This document shows positions 43,045-52,290 of a stretch of 64,000 nucleotides of DNA, piece by piece (within the stretch, counting starts at the first letter, position 1; each line of letters opens with the position of its first letter). The stretch comes from a virus (lineage: Duplodnaviria > Heunggongvirae > Uroviricota > Caudoviricetes). The notes below the pieces were generated by a model, which saw only the letters and a list, made by a program, of their open reading frames with translations, was not told where the DNA came from and did not search any database. The translations under genes were made by a program, and so were the position numbers. The stretch lies in the IMG/VR virus record IMGVR_UViG_2585427757_000006. One strand, written 5' to 3'.

Positions 43045-46000
43045 TTATTCTTTAGGTGAATTTAACTTCGTTTCAAGCTCCTCAACCCTTTTGGTCAATT
43101 GCTGAATATGATGAATGAGTGGTACAACCAAACGCTCATACATCACTCCTTCAGCGACCATACCATTTGAGGAAATATCTTCTGGAGAATCATTATTTGT
43201 TGGTTCACGCCAATGGACATATTGCGGGGCAATCTCACCAACCTCTTCAGCAATAAGGCCGTAATACCCCCAATCCTTTCGGTCACCTCGACAAATTGAA
43301 CGATACCAAACAGGTCTTAATGACAAAAGTTCATCAGCATATCGATCTTGTAATGTTTCAATATCCTTTTTATAGCGCCTTGAAGACGTTGAACGCCAAA
43401 CTGTATTGATACCTGGGTTTGGATCAATGTACATATTGGCACCGCTAGTAGTTGTGCCAATATCCCATATAGCAAACCCTCCACTACCGCCTGATTTGAC
43501 AACCAGTGTTTCAGCAACAATATCCAGGTTGCCACTATAGCCTGTCAGTGATGATCTGCTTGCATAGGAGCTTAGAAGGTTTGCTACCTCTGTTTTCGTG
43601 TAAGCATTAAGGTTAGCCGCAGTCAAAGTTATATCGGCAGAGCCATCAAACGCCACACCAGCAATTTTCCTTGCTGTCTGCAATTTTGTGGCGGTTGCGG
43701 CATTACCAGTAGTGTTCTGATTACCAGTTGTATTCACACCAGGGATTGAATCCTTAGCGGTATATACCTGCGCCCACGCTGACCATGCTGCACCTGTGTT
43801 ATCTCTTCGTGAGCGAATGAAAACTGGCGCATGTGCACCGCTCGTACCACTCCAGCCAATAAGCAACTCGCCCTCACCAGCAGCACTCGCACCTTTCATG
43901 TGCAATACGTTGCCATACGTGGTCGGGTAGCTATTGTTGTACGCCTCATACATTTGAATGCCAGCAGTGCCTTGAGTAGAGCCGCTTAACGCCGTAACTC
44001 GGCCACGAGATACCAATGTATTAATGTTGATATCGCCTGAACCATCAAACTTAACACCATTGATGTTTCTCGCTGTTTGCAACTTCGTAGCTGTTGAAGC
44101 ATTACCGTTCAAACTACCATTTACGCCACCAGTCACATTTAGTCCATTACCAATTGATACAGCACCGCTGGTATTATTAATTGTAATCGGTCGCAAACCG
44201 TTCCATGAACCTAATGTGTCTCCTGATGCTGTTAGCAGGAAATATGTGTTCGCCCCATCATTACGGATAAAGAACCCATAGTTACCGTAAGCAATGCGGA
44301 AACCATTTGCATATTTTGAAACGATCTCACCAGAAGACGTTACCCCCCCAGATAATGTGCCACCTGAAAGCGGTAATGCTCCTACATCAGAAGCTGTTGG
44401 TTTGTTTCTGGTGTTATAAGAACGACGCCAGCCTGGCGCATAATCACTTCCATTGTACACATAAATAAATTCCGCATTATTAACACCACCATGACCCGAT
44501 GTTGTTGTCGTTGTAACACGAATAGTGTAATGGCTTGTTGCCTTATTACTAAACACCTCAATCACGGAACCAGATAGATCGATCCTACCGCAACCAGTGT
44601 CGTCTATATAATTATTGTTGGCGTAAGCCCATGAGCACCGTGCAATCCAATATTTGTTTGAAAATGCACCCTGATTATTTAGCCACGTTATAAACTGAGC
44701 AGTCGTAAATGCTGTTCCGTTACCACTATTTAACCATCCGGCGGCAGCGGTTGGTGCGTTTATATCAGCCGGCTGAGGCATAAATCCAGTCGTGTAAACC
44801 TGCTCCCAACCACTTTCAAAACCATAGCCATCTCTTGAGGAACGGTAGAACAGACCACCATTTTTATAGTGAGCTTTAATTTGAAGCGTACGGCAACTAC
44901 CTACACCGGTATAAAAGTTGGCAAGAATATAACTAGCGCCTGCTCTAGTTACATTGTAAGCACCAGATTCAGCATTCCACGGCACGCCACCATCAGCATC
45001 CGCATATGTATCCGTTGCCCTTCTGGCAAAAGCAGCCACATGCGCGGCGGTTAAAGTGATATCTTTGGAACCATCAAACTCAACACCAGAAACCCGTCTT
45101 GGCGTTTGCAGCTTTGTTGCTGTTAATGCATTACCGTTCAGACTTGCGGACAGTTTGGTTCCAATAACCAGTTCGCCGGTTGCGTTATCAATAGCAAACG
45201 GTCTTAATGTATTCCAGCCACCATAAACATCACCTTGATTGGTAAGCAGCAGGTAAGTTTTAGCGCCATCATTACGCCATAATGCCCCATACTCCCCACC
45301 TATCATTCGAATCTGATTACCACCACGCGCTACAATTTCGTCTGTGGCAAAAAGTTTTTTGCACGACAAGTTATCGTTAACGATTAACGAATGAGACTCA
45401 TAAAAACCACGCCCACTCTTAAAATCAAGGATAACGTCCGCCGCGATACATTCAATCGCCGGATTTGTTGCCCCAAACTTATAGGTCGTATCATTAACAA
45501 CGAGATCCGCACCAGGTGCGGATATTGACAGGCCATCTTCAATAAACGCAAAAACAGGGAAAGCAGCACCATCAACATAGAACACAGAGCGCAAATCATC
45601 GCCCTTATTACTCATCATTATTGAGTGGATGGCTCGTTCATTGTTTTGATATTGCCAGAACATTCCATAAGCATAACGCCCCCTGTCAGTCCAGCCACCA
45701 GGCATAACAAATCCGTTAAACTCGCAGTTATTCATCGGATCGCCTGCGGTTCGCGTTGCCGTGGTGATAATGACCCTTGATGCCAGTTCGCTTACTGAGC
45801 CAGCAGAACGCATAACAACAACAGGGTAATATTTTCCAGATGTTGCACCTGCAGGAGCGTTAACCCGCACATAACGCATACCACGCTTATCAGCAAAGTC
45901 TGTTTTACTGACCGCGTTAATGTTGTTCAGGAAGCGTCCCTTATCGGGTATATCAGCGCCGTTCTGGTCTTTCTGCAGACGTTTCTCTGCATTGTCATAG

Positions 46001-47466
46001 GCTGATTTTACTGCCTTTGGCGTTGCCGCCAGCGTCTCAGACGTACTGTTGGTCGCACTGCTGAGCTGTACTATCCCCTTTTTCGTCGTACTTGCATCCT
46101 CAAGCGCCACGGCGGATGCAATATCCTCTGCCCGTTTTGCCGCTGTCTCGGCGCGCGTTGCCGCGGATTCCGCCGTACTTTTGCTCTGTGCTGCCGCCGT
46201 CGCACTGCCAGCTGCCTCTGTCGCCTTCGTGGATGCTGTCGTGGCGCTGCCCTTCGCTGCGGACGCTTGTCTGGTCGCCTCATCTTTTGAAGCAGACGCC
46301 GATGATGCCGATGACGCTGCCGAACTGGCGGACGATGCGGCTGCCGTTTTTGAGGATTCTGCACGGGTTTCCGACGCTTTCGCGTTCGTTTCGGATGTCT
46401 TCGCTGCGGAAGCAGACCTCGCTGCTGCGCTGGCCTGTTCAGTGGCTTCGCCAGCCTTCGTTGTGGCTGTTGAAGCAGACGATGCGGCACTTTCTGCCGA
46501 TTTTCCGGCGGCGGTGGCACTGGCTGAGGCCTGCCCGGCACTTGTTGACGCGGCACTTGCAGACGACGCAGCCGCTGTTTTTGAGCCTGCCGCAGCCGAG
46601 GCGCTCTGTCCCGCTGCCGTTTCAGAAGACCTGGCGTTCGTCTCGGACGTTTTTGCCGCCTTCGCGGAATTTCCTGCCGCCGTTGCCGAGGAAGCGGCAT
46701 TACTGGCGCTCGAGGCTGCGTTCGTTTCTGATGATTTCGCTGCCTCTTTTGAGGCCGCCGCATCCCGGGCTGAGGTGGCAGCTTCTGACGCCTTCGTGGT
46801 CGCGGTGGATGCAGAAGTGGCTGCAGATTTTTGTGACGCTGCAGCATTCGTTTCAGATTTTTTCGCAGCAGTTGCACTCGCACTTGCGGCACTTTGTGAG
46901 GATGCCGCAGCGGATGCACTTTGAGACGCTTGAGAGGCTTTTTCTCCAGCGGCATTGGCGCTTTTTGCTGCTGCGGCAGCACTGGCCGCCGCCTCACGAG
47001 CTTTGTCGCCAGCAGCATCAATCGCGTCAGTGTTATTTTTATACCACTCAACGTTTTCGTTGTGCTCGTTGACGATCTGCATTAGCGGCTTAACGGTCAC
47101 TTCTGTACCGTCTTCACGCTCGATTGTCACCTCATCCAGCGCAGTCAACCAACTGCGTATGGACTTGGAATCAGCCGACATACGCGACATTAGCGCAGTA
47201 AAACGCGCGCTAAACTGTGTTAAGTCGCCTTCATAGGTCGTAATGATTCGGCACGGAACCTCAGACTGAGTTTCGCCGGTATAAGGTTCTGAGAGAACAA
47301 TATTCGTATCGCTTATTACGCGCTTGATCTCATACAGCTTATTGTCGGGGCCAATGACGATCATCCCCGGCAACACACCATTAGCTGTTACGTTCCAGGC
47401 TGTCCCTGCCCCAACCAGAGTATTGCTACCATGTGTAAATGTGATAGTACCTTCCCTGTACCACAT
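43045..47466 (-). CDS. long tail fibre protein (1473 aa) with Ala/Ser-rich repeat region, three tail-fibre repeat units and a C-terminal self-cleaving chaperone (peptidase S74-like) domain
   Basis: ~320-aa low-complexity SETNA-type repeats; three ...TATKLQT.R...GV.FDGS.DI... units; C-terminal SSRRYKKDI and YYGLIAEEVGEIAPQYV. Confidence 0.85.
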   Translation of the reverse strand: MWYREGTITFTHGSNTLVGAGTAWNVTANGVLPGMIVIGPDNKLYEIKRVISDTNIVLSEPYTGETQSEVPCRIITTYEGDLTQFSARFTALMSRMSADSKSIRSWLTALDEVTIEREDGTEVTVKPLMQIVNEHNENVEWYKNNTDAIDAAGDKAREAAASAAAAAKSANAAGEKASQASQSASAAASSQSAASASATAAKKSETNAAASQKSAATSASTATTKASEAATSARDAAASKEAAKSSETNAASSASNAASSATAAGNSAKAAKTSETNARSSETAAGQSASAAAGSKTAAASSASAASTSAGQASASATAAGKSAESAASSASTATTKAGEATEQASAAARSASAAKTSETNAKASETRAESSKTAAASSASSAASSASSASASKDEATRQASAAKGSATTASTKATEAAGSATAAAQSKSTAESAATRAETAAKRAEDIASAVALEDASTTKKGIVQLSSATNSTSETLAATPKAVKSAYDNAEKRLQKDQNGADIPDKGRFLNNINAVSKTDFADKRGMRYVRVNAPAGATSGKYYPVVVMRSAGSVSELASRVIITTATRTAGDPMNNCEFNGFVMPGGWTDRGRYAYGMFWQYQNNERAIHSIMMSNKGDDLRSVFYVDGAAFPVFAFIEDGLSISAPGADLVVNDTTYKFGATNPAIECIAADVILDFKSGRGFYESHSLIVNDNLSCKKLFATDEIVARGGNQIRMIGGEYGALWRNDGAKTYLLLTNQGDVYGGWNTLRPFAIDNATGELVIGTKLSASLNGNALTATKLQTPRRVSGVEFDGSKDITLTAAHVAAFARRATDTYADADGGVPWNAESGAYNVTRAGASYILANFYTGVGSCRTLQIKAHYKNGGLFYRSSRDGYGFESGWEQVYTTGFMPQPADINAPTAAAGWLNSGNGTAFTTAQFITWLNNQGAFSNKYWIARCSWAYANNNYIDDTGCGRIDLSGSVIEVFSNKATSHYTIRVTTTTTSGHGGVNNAEFIYVYNGSDYAPGWRRSYNTRNKPTASDVGALPLSGGTLSGGVTSSGEIVSKYANGFRIAYGNYGFFIRNDGANTYFLLTASGDTLGSWNGLRPITINNTSGAVSIGNGLNVTGGVNGSLNGNASTATKLQTARNINGVKFDGSGDININTLVSRGRVTALSGSTQGTAGIQMYEAYNNSYPTTYGNVLHMKGASAAGEGELLIGWSGTSGAHAPVFIRSRRDNTGAAWSAWAQVYTAKDSIPGVNTTGNQNTTGNAATATKLQTARKIAGVAFDGSADITLTAANLNAYTKTEVANLLSSYASRSSLTGYSGNLDIVAETLVVKSGGSGGFAIWDIGTTTSGANMYIDPNPGINTVWRSTSSRRYKKDIETLQDRYADELLSLRPVWYRSICRGDRKDWGYYGLIAEEVGEIAPQYVHWREPTNNDSPEDISSNGMVAEGVMYERLVVPLIHHIQQLTKRVEELETKLNSPKE

Positions 47467-47559: not shown

Positions 47560-50500
47560 TCACAGACGGCCAATTCTTACTCGTAGGACGTTGTTATCGT
47601 CATAAACGTCAATCCGCTGACCATTTATAACCAATCGCCCATTGCCGCCGCTATTACCGTTGATCTCCAGCGTTCCATTTTTGCCGAACCGCCATCCAGA
47701 TCTACCGCTAACAAAATTGGTAGATTGCAGATCGCCTACTTTTGCATTGGTGATTGTGCCATCCTTGATATACGCTCCATTCATATAGGCGATACTGTTT
47801 TCGATAACAAATGGCGTTGTGATCTTCCCGTTAACAGAGTTGACCAAACCAAACCTGTCCGCCTGAACCAAAAACTGAGATAGCCCAGTGGTGTCAATAC
47901 CAAGCGCAATACCGGCAACATACTTCTGCCCTCCGCTCGTTGAAGTCTCCATTTTCAACGTCCACGCGGTTGACACTTTTTTGTTGGTATCAGCAATAGC
48001 TGTTGCCTGCTGTTGAATTGTCGCGGTATTTCCATTCACCTCTGCTTTCAGAGTATCGATTCGCCCACTCAGAGCATTATCTGCCTGCGTTCTCGCTTTC
48101 GTTTCAGTTGTGACCGCCGCGGAAATGTTGGCTGCCGTTTGAGACTCTAAGTTTGTGATTTGAGTCGCCAATGCAGCATCTTGCTCTGTACGCGTTTTCG
48201 TTTCGGTTGCTACAGCCGCTTTAATATCCTCTTTGTATTGAGAGGTCAGCTTGGTGATCTGAGACGACAACGCCGAGTCAGCATCAGTTCGAGCCTGCGT
48301 TTCAACTGCAACGGCCGCACTAATATCTTTCGCTGTCTGTGCTTTTAAACTTGAAACCTCTTTTGTTAAAGCGGTATCACCATCTGCACGAGCCGTTGTT
48401 TCTCTGGCAAGAGACGCCTTGAGATCATTAGCTTTTGCTGTAAGAGACGTAATCTGGGTAGACAATGCACTATCGGCATCAGTCCTTGCTTTTGTCTCTA
48501 CAGCAACCGCTGCGGCAATATCAGTTCCGGTTTGTGCTCGCAGGCTGTTAATTTCTCGTGAGAGCGCCTGGTCAGCACTTGCTCTGGCCTCCTGCTCCTG
48601 AGTGATGGCAGCGGATATATCACCGTCAACCTTTGACTGAAGCTGGTTTATTTGTTTGGCTAACGCAGAGTCCCCGCTTGCTCGGGCCTCCTGCTCACTA
48701 CGTATTGCAGCAGAAATATCATCATCAACCTTTGCCTGAAGTTGGGTGATCTGGCTTGCCAGAGCCGAATCTTCCGTTACTCGGGCTTCTTGCTCTTCCT
48801 TAATAGCTGCGACGATATCGTTGCTTACTTTCGACTCAAGCTGAGTGATCTGTGTCGTCAGAGCTTCATCGGCAGATGTACGAGCCTCCTGCTCTGTACT
48901 AATCGCCGCGCTGATATCTCCTTCAAACTTAGATTGCAGCTGAGTGACACGCTTTGCCAACGCTTCATCGCCATCGGCACGAGCGGTGGACTCTTCCAGA
49001 ATACTGGCCTTAATGTCTTCGCCAATTTCTACGCGAATTTCCTCAACCTTCGTGGCCATTGCAGACATATCATCAGCAAAGGTTTTCTGTGTTGTTGCGA
49101 TCTTCGCGTTATTGACCATCTGCTTGTGCTGGTCTTCATCTTGACGAAGAGCCAGGTCAATATTTGTTTTGGCCAAAGCCTCAATGTTCGTAGTCAGTTC
49201 TGCACTGGCACGATCGACCTCTGCAACCGTCTTTTTCATTTCTTCAACGGCAGCGGAGCTTTCCTCTACCGTTGACTGCAACACTTCCAGTTGTTTAGCG
49301 TTTGCAGCATCCCCTTCAACACGAGCCTCGCTTTCCTTAGCAATAAGAGCCGCCGCTTCGTCTCTTGCAGCCTTTATTGCCTCGACTGTATTAGCGAGAG
49401 CTTTATCGTGTTCAGATACGGTGTTTTCGATTTCAACAATTGCAGCATCAGTAGCATCAATTTTTTCAAACGCTTCATTGACCTTGTCGATCGTTGCCGA
49501 AACCTCACCTTTAAGCTCGGTTTGTGCGTTCTCCAAAGCATCGCTACGCTCGTTGAATTTTATTTCAAAACCCGCGAGGTTATCGCTGAACTGCTTATCT
49601 AATTCAGCTATATCTTCCTTAACGTCGTTTACCGACCCCTCCAAAGATTCGACGCTCTGGTTGATATGCTCATTTAACTCGTCAACTGCTTCTTGAGAGA
49701 CTTTGCTGTTGATGTCCTCAAGCAGAGCCTGACCAAGCTCGGAAGATGTAATTTTGCCAGTCAGGAACGACAGTACATCGCGAGTTGTCGCCTCTGTTCC
49801 CAAGTTTGAGTTCGGAGGACTTAACATACCTCGCTTGTTCGATGCTCGAACCCAGTAATACCACGTTTCGCTATCCCCAAGACCAGCATGTGTAAAGGTG
49901 GTGCTTGCAGACTCTGCGATCAGTTTCGCCGTATCCAGATTGTTGGTCTGGGATGCGTAAACATTAATGTGATCAAGGTCTACCGAATCTGGATTAACCC
50001 AATTCAGTATCACATTACGATAGTCTCCAACGGCCGTTAATGACGTTGGGGCATCTGGCGGTGTCATTGTGCCCAACACCTGATAAACGGTACTGATAAT
50101 CTCTGTTTTTTTACCGTTGAATGAAACCGCATACAGCTGGAAGTCGTAGCGTCCATTCTCCGCGACATTAACGATTTCGTATTGCTCTTCGGTTACACGC
50201 GCCGATTGCCAGTTCGATACATTGTTTTCATCAGAACGTCGCCAACTGATCCAATACTCTGGAGATTTCCCTTCCCATGTTGCAGTCAGTTTTACTGACA
50301 GGTTGCCCGGGCTTGAGAGGTAAGTCCCTTCAGTGATTTGCAAATTAGACGGCTTGGAGTAAGTCGGGTCCAATACCGTCGTATTCTGCGGGATAAGCGT
50401 TGCACCATTGTCGATCGCCTCATATTTAGACGGATTGTTTTCAACAGCGGTGATGTCAAAGCTACCCGACGTTTCCCCCTGAGCGATGTTAACGATGCGA

Positions 50501-52290
50501 ACGCGCATAGGTTCGAGATCTGGTTCTGTAATTGTCCAGACACCGTTCAAAACAGGCGTTTCCGCTGACGACAGGGCTTTTGAAAACGTAACCTTTGTTA
50601 TGTTTTCGCCAGTTTCAAGAACATCGCGCTCAACGATTTTGCCTTCCTGATTCAATATCCGAATAAAGCTGCCGCTTTTAGCTAACGACACAGGCGCATC
50701 GAGAGTGATGCTGTTTTTGGTAAACTCCACAATTCGACCGGAGTTACGTTTACCTGCACGATATTTGTTCTGAATCAGAACGGTTTCACCAGGCATCAGA
50801 AATGAGGCGTCTAAGCCGGCAGTAAATGTAATTACATCCGACTCCATTCTGGCGGTATACAAAAGCCACAAACCAACTCGGTGAGCCTGGCCTCGGCTTG
50901 TACATCCAAATGCTACGACTTCTGTTTTACGCTCACCATAACGGCGCATTGCGTCCTGATCTTCAACGTATTCGATGTTTTGCTTATAACCGTCCTCCTT
51001 GTTGTTGTAGGTTACGAGCGCAACGGATGGGCGATCTTTACGCGCAGAACCTTTATAGGTAAACAGTCCATCTTTGACGTTGGAGTTGGTAAACATCATT
51101 ACCGGATCTGATGGGCTATCCTGCATGATGTTAACCATGCCACCAGCCCAAAACACCATGCCGCGGAATGCACCGGCAATATCCTGAATTAATCGGTATG
51201 CGTCTTGTCGACTGGTGATCTGCGTATTGATTGCAAAGCGTTTCTCTTTACCCCCAAAGCCATCATCGACCTCTTCGTCACAATATCGACCAATCTGGTA
51301 GAGCTGGCCGAGGTCAATCATGGATTCCGACACAAATTGCCCAAGACCATACCGAGTATTGGTAAGCAAATCGTAGAGAATCCACGCAGGGTTTGAAGAA
51401 GACAACAGCTTAAAAGTACCGTCCCATACGCCGACATAAGTATTGGTGTATTCGTTGTAGTTTGACGGTACTCGGATTTTGATACCGCGCACCAAATACG
51501 AACGGGAAGGCATTGTGCTACCAAACTGCTCTGAATTGACCTTCAAGCCAACAAGAGCAGAGTTAGGGTAGTTCATTGGCGTGTCGACAATCTCACCGAT
51601 GGAATCAACCCATGTGTCGTTGTAGAGGTACTGGCTACTATTATCATCTGTAAGACGAATCACCCTAACCTTGTATGCACGACCAGGCTTAGGCAGTTTC
51701 AGCTCATAGCTACGGTAATACACGCCGGTTTTCTTTGCCGTTAGCGTGATATCAACGCTTTTCTCACCTTCTGCCACTACATCAGAAAATGTTGCGTCTG
51801 CGTTGGCGATCTGGAATTTGTACTTCACCGTAGTGTCATTTGTATCGCCAGAGCTTTTATCAACGCTACGTAAAGAGGGGAATTTCATGATGACACGAAC
51901 GCGATCAGCTTCATCGTTATCGATTGAAACCGTAACGTCGTGGGTTTTTTTAAGGTGAATATTTACGGACTTAGGCGTTTCAACAAAATCAAAACCAGCC
52001 ATTGGCGTCTGGTCTTGTGAGCCGTCACGAAAATCCCATGTAATACCGCTGAAGTTGGAAGAGCCATCTTCATTCAAGATCGGTAAATCGTCGATGAAGA
52101 TCGACTTTGCGCCATTTACCAGGCCACCGATAACCCCCTCGCCAAGAAGGTCGAGGATGGCTGCCATAGCACGAGAATTGACAGTATCATCAGCTTCAAC
52201 CGGGGTACGGCTGGAGCTTTTACTTTTCTTGCCACCAGCACCGGCAATAAGAAGCGGTAATTTTTTCTTCTTGAACTGTTCCATGTCCAA
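47560..52290 (-). CDS. lambda J-like central tail fibre / host-specificity protein (1576 aa) with a long coiled-coil repeat array
   Basis: AFGCTSRGQAHRVGLWLLYT and FLTGKITSSELGQALLE align with lambda J as recalled; ~15 tandem ~25-aa repeats; J-like C-terminal block. Confidence 0.9.
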   Translation of the reverse strand: MDMEQFKKKKLPLLIAGAGGKKSKSSSRTPVEADDTVNSRAMAAILDLLGEGVIGGLVNGAKSIFIDDLPILNEDGSSNFSGITWDFRDGSQDQTPMAGFDFVETPKSVNIHLKKTHDVTVSIDNDEADRVRVIMKFPSLRSVDKSSGDTNDTTVKYKFQIANADATFSDVVAEGEKSVDITLTAKKTGVYYRSYELKLPKPGRAYKVRVIRLTDDNSSQYLYNDTWVDSIGEIVDTPMNYPNSALVGLKVNSEQFGSTMPSRSYLVRGIKIRVPSNYNEYTNTYVGVWDGTFKLLSSSNPAWILYDLLTNTRYGLGQFVSESMIDLGQLYQIGRYCDEEVDDGFGGKEKRFAINTQITSRQDAYRLIQDIAGAFRGMVFWAGGMVNIMQDSPSDPVMMFTNSNVKDGLFTYKGSARKDRPSVALVTYNNKEDGYKQNIEYVEDQDAMRRYGERKTEVVAFGCTSRGQAHRVGLWLLYTARMESDVITFTAGLDASFLMPGETVLIQNKYRAGKRNSGRIVEFTKNSITLDAPVSLAKSGSFIRILNQEGKIVERDVLETGENITKVTFSKALSSAETPVLNGVWTITEPDLEPMRVRIVNIAQGETSGSFDITAVENNPSKYEAIDNGATLIPQNTTVLDPTYSKPSNLQITEGTYLSSPGNLSVKLTATWEGKSPEYWISWRRSDENNVSNWQSARVTEEQYEIVNVAENGRYDFQLYAVSFNGKKTEIISTVYQVLGTMTPPDAPTSLTAVGDYRNVILNWVNPDSVDLDHINVYASQTNNLDTAKLIAESASTTFTHAGLGDSETWYYWVRASNKRGMLSPPNSNLGTEATTRDVLSFLTGKITSSELGQALLEDINSKVSQEAVDELNEHINQSVESLEGSVNDVKEDIAELDKQFSDNLAGFEIKFNERSDALENAQTELKGEVSATIDKVNEAFEKIDATDAAIVEIENTVSEHDKALANTVEAIKAARDEAAALIAKESEARVEGDAANAKQLEVLQSTVEESSAAVEEMKKTVAEVDRASAELTTNIEALAKTNIDLALRQDEDQHKQMVNNAKIATTQKTFADDMSAMATKVEEIRVEIGEDIKASILEESTARADGDEALAKRVTQLQSKFEGDISAAISTEQEARTSADEALTTQITQLESKVSNDIVAAIKEEQEARVTEDSALASQITQLQAKVDDDISAAIRSEQEARASGDSALAKQINQLQSKVDGDISAAITQEQEARASADQALSREINSLRAQTGTDIAAAVAVETKARTDADSALSTQITSLTAKANDLKASLARETTARADGDTALTKEVSSLKAQTAKDISAAVAVETQARTDADSALSSQITKLTSQYKEDIKAAVATETKTRTEQDAALATQITNLESQTAANISAAVTTETKARTQADNALSGRIDTLKAEVNGNTATIQQQATAIADTNKKVSTAWTLKMETSTSGGQKYVAGIALGIDTTGLSQFLVQADRFGLVNSVNGKITTPFVIENSIAYMNGAYIKDGTITNAKVGDLQSTNFVSGRSGWRFGKNGTLEINGNSGGNGRLVINGQRIDVYDDNNVLRVRIGRL

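Follow-up and report, generated by a model that had tools for sequence, protein, structure and literature searches.

A 33-residue tandem repeat in the central tail fibre shaft of an SSU5-like phage-plasmid carries covariation marks of two folds

We examined a 64,000-nucleotide stretch of DNA (hereafter the window) from a tailed virus of the class Caudoviricetes (IMG/VR record IMGVR_UViG_2585427757_000006), with attention to a long gene for a J-like tail tip protein that carries an array of tandem repeats. The gene lies at 47560..52284 on the minus strand, and its product has 1574 amino acids (aa) counted from the ATG at 52284. A mechanical open reading frame (ORF) call, 47560..52290 (−), begins at TTG 52290; near-identical annotated alleles use the ATG two codons downstream ('MEQFKKKK'). 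Amino acid numbers below start at TTG 52290. A Pfam search placed FNIII-A_GpJ (PF24801, E 1.6e-28) at aa 103–237, Phage-tail_3 (PF13550, E 2.4e-35) at aa 359–522, fn3 at aa 746–825 and Phage_Tail_Tip (PF09327, formerly DUF1983, E 1.4e-41) at aa 1424–1558. These placements bear out an earlier note on this DNA, which had put the array between a J-like body and a J-like C-terminal block. When the whole protein was searched against PDB sequences, the F2-pyocin tail fibre (25vf) was the best match (E 2.1e-153), phage T1 gp33 (9l9p) was also among the best, and lambda gpJ (8iyk) matched over aa 22–861 (E 2.7e-127); the PF09327 region matched the lambda gpJ fragments 8xcj and 8jvm, T1 gp33 and the F2-pyocin fibre. 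PHROGs assigned the protein to 'central tail fiber J' and 'tail fiber protein', and hundreds of existing records carry the annotation, with the RefSeq name 'TipJ family phage tail tip protein'. Judged by its sequence, the product is a TipJ-family central tail fibre, that is, a J-type tail tip protein.

The protein, encoded throughout on the minus strand, could be divided into consecutive regions. The hub body with its fibronectin type III (FNIII) domains (49801..52284, aa 3–830) was 91–100% identical among SSU5-like relatives, and was followed by a conserved linker, 'DVLSFLTGKITSSELGQALLEDI' (49696..49800, aa 831–865), which is common to lambda J. The next region was an acidic, proline-free proximal segment of heptad type (49456..49695, aa 866–945), with a period of 3.55–3.58, which AlphaFold 2 (AF2) predicted to be helical. 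Then came two to three degenerate copies of a 32-aa unit (49246..49455, aa ~946–1015, a possible third copy reaching aa 1041), recognized by motif spacing and by a hidden Markov model (HMM) of the unit. A near-invariant helical block without repeats, bearing an acidic 'RQDEDQ' patch (49018..49245, aa 1016–1091), was delimited by alignment and AF2. The array itself (48031..49017, aa 1092–1420), defined by autocorrelation and the unit HMM, consists of ten tandem units of 33 residues, except unit 7, which has 32. The C-terminal tip domain (central straight fibre domain, PF09327; 47563..48030, aa 1421–1576) was 92–100% identical among relatives. The protein stops 18 aa past PF09327 ('...VLRVRIGRL'), and a lambda-type C-terminal receptor-binding extension was not found in it. 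Four relatives from Salmonella, Yersinia and Citrobacter (P0030, P0038, P0039 and P0073) have the units and the tip domain followed by a lambda-like C-terminal extension ('...NVTIAQNCQILGKL...').

The gene order tape measure protein–M–L–K–I–J–side fibre is annotated in Cyrano, PhiR41_1 and SSU5, and the window has matching ORFs. At the DNA level the gene was 95% identical to its counterparts in Escherichia phages CMS-2020a and Cyrano and related to that of SSU5, and it was 98–99.4% identical to genes on plasmids of ~110 kb. On these similarities, the window is therefore part of an SSU5-like E. coli phage-plasmid. The gene was found in 228 of 5,426 complete E. coli genomes and was plasmid-borne every time. 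The orthologues SSU5 gp20 (YP_006906652) and Cyrano CYRAN_20 have the same architecture; Cyrano is 96–100% identical region by region, and SSU5 differs in having 5 units.

The repeat was clear at the protein level. BLOSUM62 autocorrelation over aa 1092–1420 gave peaks at lags 33, 66 and 99, and the value at lag 33 was 2.17, compared with a maximum of 0.26 at any lag in 1000 shuffles. A tandem array of about 15 repeats of ~25 residues had been claimed for 47950–49750. A repeat does exist there, though with another period: 49% of the residues within the array were identical at a lag of 33 and 11% at a lag of 25, which rules out the shorter period. The consensus string proposed at that time was essentially right and is itself 33 characters long, so that the ~25 and the ~15 were a miscount of ten units of 33. 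The extent also shrank, as 47950–49750 corresponds to aa ~848–1447 and covers the whole helical shaft and the start of the tip domain, whereas the array is confined to 48031–49017; the proximal ~225 aa (aa 866–1091) are helical without 33-residue periodicity. The unit HMM matched each of the ten consecutive units (E 1e-15 to 1e-20), with the consensus DISAAIxxETxARTxADxALxxQITxLxSKxxx and invariant residues A4, E9, R13, D17, A19, L20 and L27. Upstream of the array, it matched a degenerate copy at aa ~981–1009 (16.8 bits), and motif matches at 949/981/1013 and at 964/996 showed a spacing of 32 aa. In a Pfam search at E values up to 10, no model covered the shaft or the unit, and every match was below threshold.

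A unit of 33 residues equals three hendecads, or nine helical turns. We assigned helical phases on 111 units from 16 proteins at nine turns per 33 residues. The core-facing positions were I2, I/V6, E9, R13, D17, L20, I24, L27 and V/T31, so the core combines a hydrophobic stripe with a buried E9–R13–D17 salt-bridge ladder. Positions 4, 12, 19, 21 and 29 held small residues in 95–100% of cases and pointed 77–152 degrees away from the core (A4 152, A19 120 and S/A29 142 degrees). Conserved small residues at solvent-facing positions are not expected in an ordinary coiled coil.

Structure prediction agreed with a helical shaft. AF2 was run on the monomer with shallow alignments (12 sequences for five units plus the tip, and six for the whole shaft). 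The last five units formed an unbroken helix (predicted local distance difference test, pLDDT, ~92), and in the whole-shaft model helices spanned aa 866–1054 and 1065–1439. The single break, at aa 1055–1064 (49099–49128), was accompanied by a pLDDT below 50 at aa 1048–1065; it comes right after the invariant acidic 'RQDEDQ' and lies inside the best-conserved part of the shaft (aa ~1016–1096), where the alignment of relatives showed invariant columns in the aa 1016–1091 block. The shaft region contains no proline. Fourier analysis of hydrophobicity gave two peaks in the array, at 3.65 (hendecad helix) and 2.06 (beta-type alternation), and only one, at 3.55, in the proximal shaft. The coiled-coil check suggested in the earlier note thus came out positive, with a helical AF2 monomer from shallow alignments, periods of 3.55–3.65 and no proline. 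J-family proteins are trimers, and the shaft is hence taken as a three-stranded coiled coil. The array region is almost certainly the coiled-coil shaft of the central fibre.

Comparison with lambda gpJ (8iyk, 8xcj) indicated how far this shaft has been extended. The hub body, FNIII domains, conserved linker and PF09327 domain are shared, but lambda has only ~40 helical residues between its 'GKITESHLGKELLEK' linker and the tip, against ~555 here. The unit HMM found no match in lambda gpJ, in agreement with the earlier note, which had supposed no such array there; lambda also has a LamB-binding C-terminal domain that is absent here. T1 gp33 (9l9p) has a J-like body, then 33-residue units of the same family ('DIQASLTDIREVIATETEALSREIDQLKAQIGD') and a tip ending '...LRVQIGRL'. 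It differs in having three units instead of ten, and its C-terminal 350 residues are unresolved, so it gives no structural view of the units.

A close parallel was found in the F-type pyocins. He et al. (bioRxiv 2026, PMC12874032) studied the F7-pyocin central fibre, a J homologue, by cryo-electron microscopy and cryo-electron tomography. Upon cell contact, the coiled coil at residues 921–1083 (163 residues) is transformed into a triangular beta-prism, and this refolding opens the tip and frees the tape measure protein; mutants unable to form the prism assemble but do not kill (PMC12874032). A strand motif, SxSxxMxxLxS, is conserved, in which S is a small residue that the coil leaves exposed and the prism buries, L lies buried in either fold, and M is buried in the coil only, a D/E at M being paired to an R at i±4 (PMC12874032). 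Of 24 siphophage central fibres examined, 21 were predicted to adopt both folds (PMC12874032). Two further studies of 2026 resolve the F-pyocin shaft and the docking of side fibres. In the F7 pyocin, the tube stands ~30 nm off the membrane before ejection and the prism is 10–13 nm long. The words repeat, heptad and hendecad are absent from He et al. (PMC12874032), and our literature search found no earlier description of tandem repeats or of a 33-residue period in J proteins.

Several features of such fibres recur in the protein of the window. Homology to the C-terminal ~400 residues of F-pyocin central fibres, by which He et al. selected their candidates, was present through the F2 fibre: the array and tip matched 25vf with E 8.5e-24 (aa 246–518 of the C-terminal 546 used as the query), and they matched T1 gp33 with E 4e-31. 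A long helical segment lies between the FNIII and tip domains, as indicated by the AF2 helix, the 3.55–3.65 period and the lack of proline. The motif SxSxxMxxLxS occurred twice in all ten units, reversed from unit position 4 (A4, I/V6, E9, A12 and A/T/V14, with R13 at i+4) and forward from position 19 (A19, A/S/T21, I/V24, L27 and S/A29). Motif matches in the array numbered 27, compared with 5.8 ± 2.3 in shuffles, and the proximal coil showed no clear enrichment over shuffles. S positions in the array, counted on the unit alignment, were 70% Ala, 15% Ser, 13% Thr and 2% Val; the published composition for Ala/Ser/Thr/Val is 68/11/7/8 (PMC12874032). The helical phases of the S, L and M positions also matched the published description.

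Further likenesses to the F-type pyocin fibres (F7 CFP; F2 PyoF10, 25vf; PA0641) are the TipJ hub, the FNIII domains, a trimeric alpha-helical shaft with a beta-prism tip, the same motif with buried D/E–R pairs, side fibres encoded nearby and the lack of a lambda-type receptor-binding domain. There are differences as well. The pyocin shaft has about 163–180 aa and has not been described as a tandem repeat, whereas here 329 periodic residues follow about 225 helical ones. Pyocins encode the small adhesins PyoF11/F12 just downstream, while directly after J the window has a side tail fibre gene instead (43045..47466, −; 1473 aa). The first 130 aligned residues of this side fibre were 77–98% conserved across phages with otherwise different fibres, and it is probably the partner of the shaft. 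In F-type pyocins, three side-fibre trimers dock at an acidic kink of the central shaft. Because of this precedent, the conserved kink block and the conserved side-fibre N-terminus, the block at aa 1016–1091 is probably the docking site here, as a candidate proposed by analogy.

At the junction of array and tip (aa ~1409–1439; 47973–48066), the two AF2 models conflict, both with low confidence. The short construct has strands from aa 1412, and the long construct has a helix to aa 1439. This segment corresponds to the site of the 'seed' strands and the stutter in the pyocin papers.

Coevolution offered an independent view of the unit. In a hairpin with strands 4–14 and 19–29, residue i pairs with residue 33−i, within a unit and across the unit boundary, while in a parallel in-register coiled coil the residues i and 33−i are 15–35 Å apart. 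The unit profile served to align 1,449 unique units, drawn from 183 proteins; the resulting statistics are family-wide, and units from one protein are not independent. Plain mean-field direct coupling analysis (DCA) with 166 complete units was underpowered and was repeated with 1,446 units. Pairs at i+3/i+4 then dominated (9–13, 20–24 and 20–23), confirming selection for the helix. Charge couplings at i+4 (11–15, 18–22) and i+5 (23–28, 5–10; g–e′ type) likewise fit a coiled coil. For the beta state, the informative score was the enrichment of opposite charges, DCA being dominated by the helical pairs. Among ~112–122 testable long-range pairs, the three strongest opposite-charge pairs were 11–22 (z 8.7), 5–28 (z 6.4) and 10–23 (z 4.5), all with i+j=33, and a further member of this six-member class, 3–30, ranked sixth. 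The mean z of the class was 3.9, compared with 0.6 overall and −0.7 to 1.3 for other sums, and none of 100,000 permutations reached it. The signal persisted when the proteins were split into two disjoint halves, when per-protein weights were applied, when the window's own family was left out and when inner units alone were used. At short separations, i,i+2 pairs had the highest mean z (23–25, z 10; 8–10, z 9.5), a beta-strand signature. Thus, both folds have left their evolutionary mark on the unit family, and each unit equates to a single hairpin.

Since homology, motif content and covariation all point towards the fold-switching shaft of the F-type pyocin central fibre, we lean, with some reserve, towards the reading that a coiled coil to beta-prism switch operates in the shaft of this phage. 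In the virion, the shaft would be a helix of about 555 residues with one predicted kink, about 82 nm long at ~0.148 nm per residue, of which the array would account for about 49 nm. It would keep the beta-prism tip domain at the C-terminus far from the mouth of the tube, with the side fibres docked at the conserved kink. Once the tip domain, or some other adhesin, engages the cell surface, the array would zip from its tip-proximal end into the prism, each unit becoming one beta-hairpin (strands 4–14 and 19–29, turns 15–18 and 30–3′). The product would be a prism of about 20 strands per chain and about 10 nm in length. Shortening from about 49 to about 10 nm would draw the tube ~40 nm toward the outer membrane and open the tip, and the number of units would set reach and stroke. 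Going one step further, we tentatively suggest that the unit could be the quantum of a tunable molecular spring, in which nine turns become one hairpin; copy number would then fix how far a non-contractile tail reaches, its stroke (about 3.9 nm per unit) and the energy that it stores. The tails of Cyrano virions measure 259 nm, compared with 230 nm predicted from the tape measure protein; the fibre is not resolved in them.

Several points weigh against a switch in this protein. To our knowledge, no SSU5-like tail tip has a solved structure, and the switch has been demonstrated for the pyocin only. The AF2 monomer runs, with their 12 and six sequences, gave the helical state only. What the covariation shows is an antiparallel contact between i and 33−i in the history of the family, not a switch in this protein, and its strongest pair, 11–22, doubles as an i,i+11 pair. 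Heptads, with one stutter, reportedly make up most of the pyocin shaft, whereas the units here are all hendecad; pyocin side fibres dock inside the switching segment, whereas the candidate site here lies upstream of the units. Twenty strands per chain greatly exceed the five to six aligned in the published phage set, and a partial switch is possible. Units with the same small residues also occur in proteins without a detected tip domain. The small-residue pattern is therefore not clearly limited to tip-domain proteins, and several of these 'tip-less' matches end in a divergent tip motif.

The main rival to the fold switch is a static spacer, a permanently helical trimeric rod that would set reach only (for example across O-antigen or capsule) in steps of ~4.9 nm and without refolding. 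Such a rod would agree with the exclusively helical, high-confidence AF2 models, with the i+3/i+4/i+5 couplings and the 3.65 period, with the register kept by whole-unit indels and with the fact that close relatives function with 1 to 10 units. However, it leaves the near-invariant outward small residues (A4, A19 and S/A29) and the 2.06 periodicity unexplained; a parallel in-register coiled coil could not give rise to the charge couplings at i,i+2 and i+j=33, and the homologous pyocin segment does switch. We regard the spacer as a serious candidate, though a less likely one than the switch. Tuning of fibre length, which the earlier note had suggested as a role of the array, is on this evidence probably half of the story, as homology, motif and covariation point to a shaft that changes fold.

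A docking scaffold would account for the small residues differently. The Ala-rich outer face would be conserved not for a second fold but for helices that pack along the whole array in the virion, for example the stems of side fibres, an arrangement that is compatible with the other readings. F-pyocin side fibres do bind the coiled-coil shaft, with a six-helix bundle at the F2-pyocin shaft, and in the present phage both the side-fibre N-terminus and the kink block in the shaft are conserved. Three side fibres, however, require one site and not ten, and the i+j=33 and i+2 couplings would remain unexplained. We consider a scaffold along the array improbable. The side fibre contains an Ala/Ser-rich low-complexity stretch of ~320 aa (aa 140–461), and packing of this stretch along the array was rejected as a candidate: its length was ~320, 207 and 293 aa in phages with 10, 9 and 5 J units, respectively, and so does not follow the unit number.

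The earlier note had also proposed that the array might be a hypervariable determinant of host range, which would require repeats that contact the receptor or that vary fast by slippage, in the style of a contingency locus. Two observations could be read in its favour. The shaft outside its conserved block was the most divergent region among SSU5-like relatives (42–78% identity, compared with 91–100% for the body and 92–100% for the tip), and the unit number differs between relatives. The prediction that repeat number varies was indeed borne out: we counted 10 units in the window, Cyrano and CMS-2020a, 9 in PhiR41_1, and about 6 in several alleles from E. coli, Salmonella and Cronobacter; SSU5 has 5 units, the common 1229-aa E. 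coli allele has 1, and the number reaches about 18–21 elsewhere. The nature of the variation was different from that of a hypervariable determinant. Between relatives, residues varied only at positions that are free in both folds, and 9–12 positions per unit were near-invariant across 1,400 units, the conserved positions being structural (the core ladder and the invariant small residues). Binding would be expected of the distal tip domain and of the separate 1473-aa side fibre. We regard this proposal as very improbable.

The DNA of the units also spoke against slippage. Tandem Repeats Finder reported only 2.2 copies (76% match) in a single stretch covering units 3–5 (48578..48795, −), so the tandem-repeat check recommended in the earlier note succeeded on protein and largely failed on DNA, because the DNA copies are old and diverged. 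DNA identity between units was 39–65%, third codon positions were 25–48% identical, and the longest in-register exact match between any two units was at most 12 nt. Contingency-type repeats consist of near-identical DNA copies, and these units do not; slippage should be rare at such divergence. Thus, the units are ancient and not prone to slippage. Of 164 E. coli plasmids in which the allele family covers 80% of the gene or more, most agreed in length, and dozens of plasmids and phage genomes that had been finished independently shared a gene length of 4731 or 4734 nt. Within alleles more than 98% identical to the window, two independent, exact deletions of 33 aa (99 nt), one in AH04/AH02/CT01 (AH04: NZ_CP081707) and one in 2013C-4991 (NZ_CP027358), had different junctions and left 9 units. 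Both lie at units 3/4 and 4/5, which hold the longest microhomologies of the array (10–12 nt), and indels inside the array involved whole units only. The unit number shifts by whole units, probably through rare unequal recombination.

The last alternative, that assembly created the array by collapsing or expanding a repeat, has practically no probability. No evidence in its support was found; many database copies are fragments that end in the shaft. The concern of the earlier note about a collapsed array is excluded, since dozens of E. coli plasmids, each finished on its own, and phage genomes have the same gene length, and the units are too diverged in DNA (39–65% identity) to collapse. The fragments among the database copies (P0078–P0119) are 98–99% identical to the window and end at aa ~940–1090, suggesting that draft assemblies often break in the proximal shaft.

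We then considered the unit beyond the SSU5-like group. The ten-unit profile was searched against 1.84 billion cluster representatives (clusters at 50% identity), and 2,133 proteins matched at E ≤ 1e-3 and 203 at E ≤ 1e-30. Unit periods in the matches were 32 (the commonest), 33, 36 and 39, all of which can be composed of heptads and hendecads. The longest runs had about 18–21 units, as in the 2138-aa J-like protein P0121, which has a tip domain; ten units are therefore long but not extreme.

Within the gene, the proximal segment at aa 866–945 was the most variable part (42–70% identity), with indels of 18–50 aa in relatives. DNA similarity stops at gene nt 2597–2611 (window 49680–49700, aa ~868), just past the 'GKITSSELG' linker. 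This boundary near nt 2600 was seen in about 60 E. coli plasmids and in Klebsiella phage-plasmids, and because similarity ends there, shaft and tip are, as judged by these alignments, exchanged as one module with a sharp recombination boundary. In Klebsiella phage GArcari-2022b (L006:3-7604; also L007 and L008), the J orthologue has 2534 aa and its hub body retains 75% DNA identity. Where the window's protein has array and tip, the Klebsiella orthologues have ~1,700 aa in which coiled-coil segments alternate with four carbohydrate-binding CBM_4_9 domains, a replacement that may be an adaptation to capsulated hosts.

If the fold switch holds, the unit would be a widespread and so far unnamed dual-fold repeat, with at least 2,133 protein clusters (50% identity) that contain it. 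The source of the force with which non-contractile tails breach the envelope is an open question, for which the 2026 pyocin work proposes the switch of the central fibre. With the natural allelic series, the energy-storage model for siphovirus penetration could then be tested directly. Natural alleles differ almost solely in unit number (1, 5, 6, 9 and 10), some by a single unit at more than 98% identity, and so form a ready dose series. SSU5-like phage-plasmids are also common in E. coli, inducible and genetically tractable. Apart from the mechanism, the sharp boundary of the shaft and tip module and a unit that lacks a Pfam model are useful for annotation and for the engineering of fibres and tailocins. 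The gene annotation was already known, and an architecture of this kind was described in 2026; new here are the clean 33-residue unit with its hairpin register, its wide distribution, the SSU5-like copy-number series and the covariation support for two folds.

Some further observations concern the J gene and its neighbour. Insertion sequences (IS100, ISEc23 or ISEc52) split the J gene on the E. coli plasmids NZ_CP035843 (TW10722), NZ_CP124394 (AVS0968) and NZ_CP029421 (strain 3385); infectivity has probably been lost in these phage-plasmids, which would live on as plasmids. ORFs on the opposite strand of the J gene (48742–49275, 49169–49696 and 49291–49602, all +) are not genes. Two antisense frames contain only 11 and 13 stops per 600 codons over the shaft, and this low stop density, which stems from the codon composition of the shaft, explains the ORFs; the earlier note had rightly set the other-frame entries aside as spurious. 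ORFs at 46049–47072, which overlap the side-fibre gene on both strands, look like by-products as well. The side fibre itself begins with a conserved attachment domain, contains two Gp34_trimer matches and resembles the P1/Mu S fibre and T4 gp34; its C-terminus is a Peptidase_S74 intramolecular chaperone.

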